From Octopus sinensis (lineage: Eukaryota), in assembly GCF_006345805.1 (NCBI RefSeq), contig NC_043006.1:50406001-50470000 (forward strand): a DNA stretch of 64,000 bases. Direction: 5' to 3'. A program made the position numbers and the translations under genes. The notes beneath the pieces were generated by a model. It ran no database searches and was not told where the DNA came from. It saw only the letters and a program-made list of their open reading frames with translations. Of the stretch, positions 52,425-53,150 are shown piece after piece (the stretch's first letter is position 1; every line of letters starts with the position of its first letter).

Positions 52425-53150
52425 ATATACAAAATTTAGAGGAATGACCACTAATAGGGAACAGCCTGTATGCTAGATATAGACGTCAAACTCGTCATTT
52501 ACCACGAAGAATGTGTTCTCAAAAAAAAATCATCAAAAACCAACGTTTAAAAATAAGACAAATCAAAATATACGAAAATTAAAAAAAAACCTTACCTACG
52601 TACTAATTAGTTTCACTTGTTAATATTTACGTATATAGATACGTAAACATCTGCAAGGTCATCAGCGTAGTCTGTGGTTAACGAAATACAATTTCCAGAA
52701 ATACAATTTCCAGACCGAAATCCAGCATACATAAAGCTCTACGAATTATATTTATGTGTATCTTTCAAATGCCTTCACTTTGGCCCGCTGAGATCGGAAA
52801 TTACTCTGCAGTTAAGAAACTACAGCAGTTAATTTACCGGCTAGCGAACATTTTTTTATTTAAAAATTAAATAAGGGTAGAAATTGATATTAATCAATGA
52901 AAACCAGTGGCCTAGCATATTATTTTAAAAATCCGAAGATTAAAAATTTTATACATACAAAATTTAGAGGAATGACCACTAATAGTGGACAGCCTGTATG
53001 CTAGATATAGACGTCAAACTCGCCATTTACCACGAAGAATGTGTTCTCAAAAAAAATCAGCAAAAACCAAAGTTTAAAAATAAGACAAATGAAGATATAC
53101 GAAAATAAAAGAACCCTTACCTACGTACTAATTAGTTTCACTTGTTAATA
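52425..53150 (-). mobile_element. Hammerhead element, family A; ~1.4 head-to-tail units (period ~525 bp)
   Basis: 52425-52625 repeats at ~52955-53150; (TA)n on both sides. Confidence 0.85.
52596..52670 (-). ncRNA. Type I hammerhead ribozyme
   Basis: CTACG-CTGATGA-C-CTTG..TTTACGTAT ctat ATACGTAAA..CAAG-T-GAAA-CTAATTAG-TA-CGTAG; palindromic ACTAATTAGT, GUA site. Confidence 0.88.

Follow-up and report, generated by a model that had tools for sequence, protein, structure and literature searches.

We analysed a window of 64,000 nucleotides of Octopus sinensis DNA (NC_043006.1, positions 50,406,001 to 50,470,000), the minus strand of which carries, in 726 bases, 1.38 units of a 525-nt non-coding repeat (Table 1). 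On that strand, the insert starts at about 53150, inside stem II of a hammerhead ribozyme and where the TA-rich stretch of the template blends into the flanking (TA)n, passes two predicted GUA cut sites spaced by exactly 525 nt, and ends at about 52427, 174 nt past the second of them. An earlier note, made from the letters alone, had described the same anatomy, i.e., a start inside a hammerhead, a roughly 1.4-mer with about 525 nt between cleavage sites, a complete hammerhead and a stop some 170 nt later, and we recovered all of it. The note had also observed that a motif near 52871 ends a related copy of family A elsewhere in the window. This was right: TACCCTTAT is located at 52879-52871, and the family A copy ends at the same motif, site B in Table 1. 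The overlapping repeats within the insert are identical at 199 of 215 positions (some TA flank is included in this count) and are partial tandem units, not LTRs. No open reading frame of at least 150 amino acids was found across the insert. When folded as a circle, the monomer has a minimum free energy of -121.5 kcal/mol, with z = -3.2 against 40 shuffles.

Table 1. Features of the insert, its target site and a related copy, in window positions
Feature	Position	Strand	Remarks
Whole insert, single-arm 5'-truncated copy	52425..53150	-	1.38 units of the 525-nt repeat
525-nt monomer, cut site to cut site	52601..53125	-	32% GC
Upstream hammerhead, 3' half	53121..53150	-	Stem II end, GAAA, palindromic stem III, GUA cut 53126/53125, stem I 3' strand
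Small hairpin CCAC-loop-GTGG	52976..52988	-	Immediately 5' of site A; 5'-truncation hotspot of the family
Site A motif, upstream repeat	52955..52970	-	Read through in the insert
Site B motif TACCCTTATTTAATT	52865..52880	-	Bounds the ~95-nt 'tail' and is the family's other fixed 3' end; read through in the insert
Local tandem duplication, 15 nt	52685..52714	-	Inside the unit
Complete type I hammerhead	52596..52670	-	Stem I CUACG/CGUAG, CUGAUGA, long stem II, GAAA, palindrome ACUAAUUAGU, GUA cut 52601/52600
Site A, 3' end of the insert	52427..52442	-	Putative priming site; runs into (TA)n
Half of the interrupted SINE-like host repeat	52230..52420	.	Matches uninterrupted copies
Microsatellite target, (TA)n/(CA)n/(TACA)n, with the second half of the host repeat	53151..53540	.
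Related family A copy, head-to-head two-arm insertion	3850..4492		Minus arm to B (~3850), plus arm to A (~4485)

Uninterrupted repeat copies at 16672-17005 and 48637-48928 contain, side by side, counterparts of both flanks of the insert (52230-52420 and 53320-53540), and the insert therefore splits one interspersed repeat at its microsatellite. This upholds the earlier placement of the insertion in a (TA)n. The host repeat is SINE-like, and an ARAGORN search returned no tRNA gene in the 64-kb window. Target-site duplications cannot be scored within microsatellites. The window looks transposon-rich and without an obvious host gene, with LINE-type reverse transcriptase (RT)/endonuclease ORF fragments at 7418-11016, 20969-24832 and 56762-60441. 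The hammerhead repeat is scattered and encodes no protein, and the insert is one of its old copies, truncated at the 5' end. Half of the upstream ribozyme is missing from this copy, including CUGAUGA and the stem I 5' strand, and the copy is probably an inactive dead end.

The repeat unit contains a type I hammerhead with an intact core (CUGAUGA, GAAA and GUA) and three helices, in a region that folds with z = -3.07. The base of stem II is C.U in the insert and U.U in the family. Rfam searches with the whole window and with the isolated hammerhead matched no hammerhead model and gave microsatellite look-alikes only; we identify the motif by its core nucleotides, its helices and their covariation. 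Exact 21-mer matches to the hammerhead number 31 and 173 genome-wide, with none for reversed controls, and the motif is therefore not due to chance. Across the family, stem I covaries (CTATG/CATAG, 71; CTACG/CGTAG, 11; mixed, 3; others, 12) and stem III stays palindromic through its changes, e.g., from CTAATTAG to CCAATTGG or CCATGG. The preserved core and this covariation point to selection on the predicted fold, in copies that are related and hence not independent of one another; the stem I covariation may represent a single evolutionary event at a CpG site. Elsewhere in the window, a minimal hammerhead-like motif in (TAA)n repeats (20126-20166, plus strand) adjoins a near-perfect 117-nt hairpin (20204-20320).

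A first look at the genome gave about 3000 candidate members of the family. We mapped 226 unique segments from 142 loci on a natural 1.85-unit copy with a 540-nt unit (L010), having removed duplicate entries of the same place, segmental duplicates (L093-L095, L024-L025) and second local copies (in L021 and L023). As many as 178 of the 226 segments have their 3' end at site A (106) or site B (72), about 180 and 275 nt after the cut site, respectively. A microsatellite lies within 40 nt downstream of 91/108 A ends and 51/73 B ends (142/181, counted before removal of three local duplicates), compared to a background of 14%. These fixed ends rule out random circular permutation, and since the insert itself ends at site A, the description of it as circularly permuted had to be abandoned. 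A minor third 3' end near +137 was seen in six segments (L097, L156, L157, L158, L183 and L206), in four of which it is paired with a B arm, as though substituting for A.

The 5' ends, in contrast, are variable, with a mean truncation about 190 nt beyond the last ribozyme. Their sole hotspot is a hairpin loop of the upstream repeat, 25-30 nt 5' of its site A, where 8 of 124 copies start versus 1.2 expected (about P = 0.002 after scanning). The earlier note had suggested mapping the termini of all copies and would have counted shared fixed termini against a circle; the outcome was divided, with 3' termini fixed and 5' termini not. Copies in the subfamily of the window span 0.1-1.9 units, L010 being the longest, and none was found that reaches two; about four or five hold two complete ribozymes, which the window copy does not. 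We also rejected a model in which the RNA is cleaved at its 5' end alone, since 14 copies begin over 540 nt upstream of the last cut site and there is no pile-up at that point. Variable 5' truncation combined with fixed 3' ends and an optional tail is the footprint of a Penelope-like element.

A head-to-head (inverted 5') partner is present at 48 of 108 ribozyme-anchored loci. Where both arms end at A or B (37 distinct pairs), we counted 33 AB, 4 AA and no BB (P = 5e-7 against 0.5); this test left out 34 of 72 listed pairs, in which one arm ends at neither site. One of the A+A pairs (L027) continues to B after a deletion. In a younger sister subfamily, which has a 505-nt unit and is 75% identical to and colinear with that of the window, all nine head-to-head pairs are A+B, at loci partly chosen for nearby motifs. 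The family A copy in the window is another two-arm insertion (Table 1); it has an altered hammerhead core, shares the B motif end and, over 3850-4107, is 71% identical to the insert (272 columns). Elsewhere in the genome, one and the same two-arm insertion is carried by four segmental duplicates near a contig start (L092-L095, C9:23000-599000). Penelope elements are described as inserting at (TA)n, with inverted partners and often with the tail confined to one end (Craig et al., PMC8557442), and in vitro two internal RT start sites of one such element bound its tail, with both target strands extended (Frangieh et al., PMC11167929). The end pattern and A/B pairing of our family are this Penelope tail signature. 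Internal priming at two sites by a Penelope-type enzyme, which was absent from the first reading of this DNA, explains the ends of the insert and of the family, and we are confident that the family is mobilised in a Penelope-type manner. A long inverted repeat at 12577-12956 of the window, centred near 12770 and with a CTGATGA...GAAAC...GTA hammerhead-like motif in each arm (12716 minus, 12818 plus), is probably another two-arm Penelope-type insertion.

The genome contains 147 matches to GIY-YIG Penelope-type ORFs, some of which end in (TA)n with two alternative ends. None of the 38 loci checked among the 147 matches listed shares sites A and B or the ends of the element beside its ORF; two of them hold family-A-like pieces that do not adjoin an ORF end. 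No ORF combining RT and GIY-YIG was found between pseudo-LTRs in the insert and nine 9-kb loci. The locus L091, with two ribozymes 4 kb apart, was considered as the pseudo-LTRs of an autonomous element and discarded, as no RT ORF lies between them. We noted an autonomous Penelope-type family with two alternative 3' ends of its own, about 36 nt apart in (TA)n (L222 and L225, a GIY-YIG family ending FSPKLNG). A hammerhead-like motif directly follows (TA)n at 30250-30310 of the window (plus strand), and similar motifs lie near two GIY-YIG loci (L210 and L218).

Several observations bear on whether the template was a circle. Of the 178 segments that terminate at A or B, 138 cross one cut site and 11 cross two. 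Segments starting within 8 nt of a cut site are few (4 of 226), and 5' ends do not accumulate at these sites. In copies chosen by overall likeness, junction length is exact in 50 of 58 cases, the remaining eight missing 1-2 nt in loop III and not at the cut bond. In 27 copies, the upstream and downstream repeats share 91 variants (shuffled mean 24, maximum 50), much of which is subfamily signal, and differ from each other by 7.7%, compared to 11.6-12.5% from other copies. Columns that distinguish upstream from downstream repeats are weak, the largest outside CpG and T-runs being 3/27. The arms of 25 pairs share 79 variants versus 17, and variants found in at most three loci are shared within insertions 11 times versus 0.9 expected. 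In the sister subfamily, where arms span 2.0-3.5 units, divergence is 0.68% within and 1.53% between insertions, and at one locus (L241) five variants, private among the 12 sister loci compared, are found in all four units across both arms. A one-unit template read repeatedly explains the shared variants and the sister subfamily most simply; some of the sharing could come from gene conversion. Counting against a circle, copies that cross two cut sites are scarce: there are 3 among 124 ribozyme-anchored copies, where an exponential fit predicts 8.8 (P = 0.025). Four runs presumed to be RNA yielded only short family contigs, uninformative on strand, ends or circles, and a joint in these contigs that 'goes back 541' was dismissed as repeat ambiguity. 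On balance, we lean modestly towards a circular template for the family.

The earlier note had read the insert as the retrozyme-like copy of a circle or concatemer of about 525 nt. The family data favour part of this, a single-unit template read more than once. A 1.4-mer proves nothing about circles on its own: it is one draw from the distribution of 5' truncations and so fits an uncleaved tandem transcript equally well. Penelope-type insertion from such a linear transcript of a tandem source, whether dimer or array and with no circle involved, is the foremost competing account. In vitro, RNA of several unprocessed copies is the predominant template and hammerhead mutants have no effect on insertion (PMC11167929); copies beyond one unit are in deficit, and the sister subfamily has a 17-unit array (L227, G000:C1:190068231-190076321) that is truncated 5' in (CA)n(TA)n and ends 3' at site B in (TA)n. 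Units of this array are about 1-1.6% apart and fall into two interspersed haplotype groups with no distance gradient; we rejected its reading as a 17-lap copy, given these mosaic variants shared among units, which imply that arrays can be reshaped after insertion. Homogeneous arrays could be a source of linear multimer RNA. Against a linear source, the new subfamily variants and rare variants present in both repeats and both arms would require a one-unit bottleneck many times over, there being 47 distinct shared-variant sets in 89 within-insertion pairs, a number inflated by partial coverage and homoplasy. Moreover, no array of the window's subfamily was seen among 31 + 100 motif places listed (of 31 + 173) or among the 40 best candidates from two DNA searches, in an assembly that may collapse arrays. 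We consider a linear tandem source unlikely, though still worth serious attention.

It is also conceivable that the RT copied a linear, doubly cut monomer and jumped from its 5' end to the 3' end of the same or another molecule, thereby mimicking a circle. Non-LTR RTs can jump end to end, and jumping would explain just as well why cut sites are crossed and why there is a single-unit bottleneck. However, the 58 junctions show no indels at the cut bond, 5' ends are not piled up at the cut site, and switching between molecules should yield copies of mixed subfamily origin, which are rare. A ligated circle and precise template jumping look alike at the level of sequence, but we regard such jumping as improbable. 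Still harder to credit is that the 200-bp repeat arose after insertion, by local duplication or by a second copy landing in the first, in which case the structure would say nothing about RNA. Whole insertions have indeed been locally duplicated (L021/L025 and L023/L024), but in 27 independent copies the repeats are in register and separated by an internal segment, and the 3' ends are the same fixed ones, a recurrence that largely refutes this origin.

The reading that we prefer, and think somewhat more probable than its competitors combined, is that the insert arose by target-primed reverse transcription by a borrowed Penelope-type enzyme from a single self-cut RNA unit, likely a circle, read for 1.4 laps. 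A source with two ribozymes would be transcribed, cut to a 525-540-nt monomer and ligated to a circle, as shown for coral, mussel and axolotl retrozymes. A Penelope-like RT/GIY-YIG protein would then nick (TA)n-type microsatellite DNA, in keeping with the target bias, and prime internally at site A or B. In two-arm insertions, the two strands would be primed on the same template, one arm from A and the other from B, consistent with the pairing and shared variants. The RT would pass the intact cut-site junction and come off the template at varying positions, frequently at the hairpin 5' of A, where the hotspot of 5' ends is seen, giving rise to the 0.1-1.9 units of the window's subfamily and the longer arms of its younger sister. 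More tentatively, and with slightly less than even confidence, we propose that the insertions record the work of a Penelope RT dimer that primed the two target strands at a pair of fixed sites on one ligated hammerhead circle and read round it repeatedly. If this is true, the family would directly document the circle-to-tandem step that has long been proposed, with an obligate asymmetry of one A and one B arm. Template diversity may then stem from RNA-level variation instead of many DNA sources. The movement of animal retrozymes by a Penelope RT copying circular RNA has been a proposal since 2014-2020; the present family, with its defined priming sites, an A/B arm rule that is almost strict and signatures of a single template, could be put to the test in the existing in vitro Penelope system.

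In its workings the element resembles a metazoan non-LTR retrozyme and for the most part qualifies as one, which would make it a new member of that group with predicted cleavage and circles. Full-text literature searches and a term search of the main text of an Octopus vulgaris repeat annotation found no description of a cephalopod retrozyme. As in the metazoan non-LTR retrozymes described by Cervera and de la Pena 2020 (PMC7229834) and Li, Clavereau and Pollet 2026 (bioRxiv 10.64898/2026.07.22.740005), the unit is non-coding, low in GC and without LTRs, and its type I hammerhead has a short palindromic helix III; the U.U mismatch at the base of stem II is common to the octopus family and axolotl HHR_Amex2. 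Mobilisation by Penelope-like elements via circles has been proposed for these retrozymes, and the circle-to-tandem model had already been put forward in PMC4209133. The octopus unit is longer (525-540 nt) than the 170-400 nt of the tested invertebrate non-LTR retrozymes, and the window's subfamily, known here from genomic DNA, consists of dispersed copies of less than two units and not of arrays. Neither fixed ends at A and B nor insertions with two arms are described in the accessible text of these two studies. Chlamys elements such as MRC1 (PMC8557442) are likewise non-autonomous and Penelope-type, with pseudo-LTRs and head-to-tail copies. Unlike the octopus family, most of them are reported to have no canonical hammerhead, and elements of the MRC1 type are similar to the 3' end of their own autonomous family, whereas no such match was found among the 38 GIY-YIG loci. 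Compared to the Penelope-like elements Neptune, Naiad and Poseidon (PMC8557442, PMC11167929, PMC4209133), the octopus element has no ORF and a tail of about 95 nt instead of 30-40 nt. It shares with them, as these sources portray them, 5' truncation, partial tandems, an inverted 5' partner, a tail confined to one end, (TA)n targets and two internal sites of RT initiation preceded by a hammerhead.
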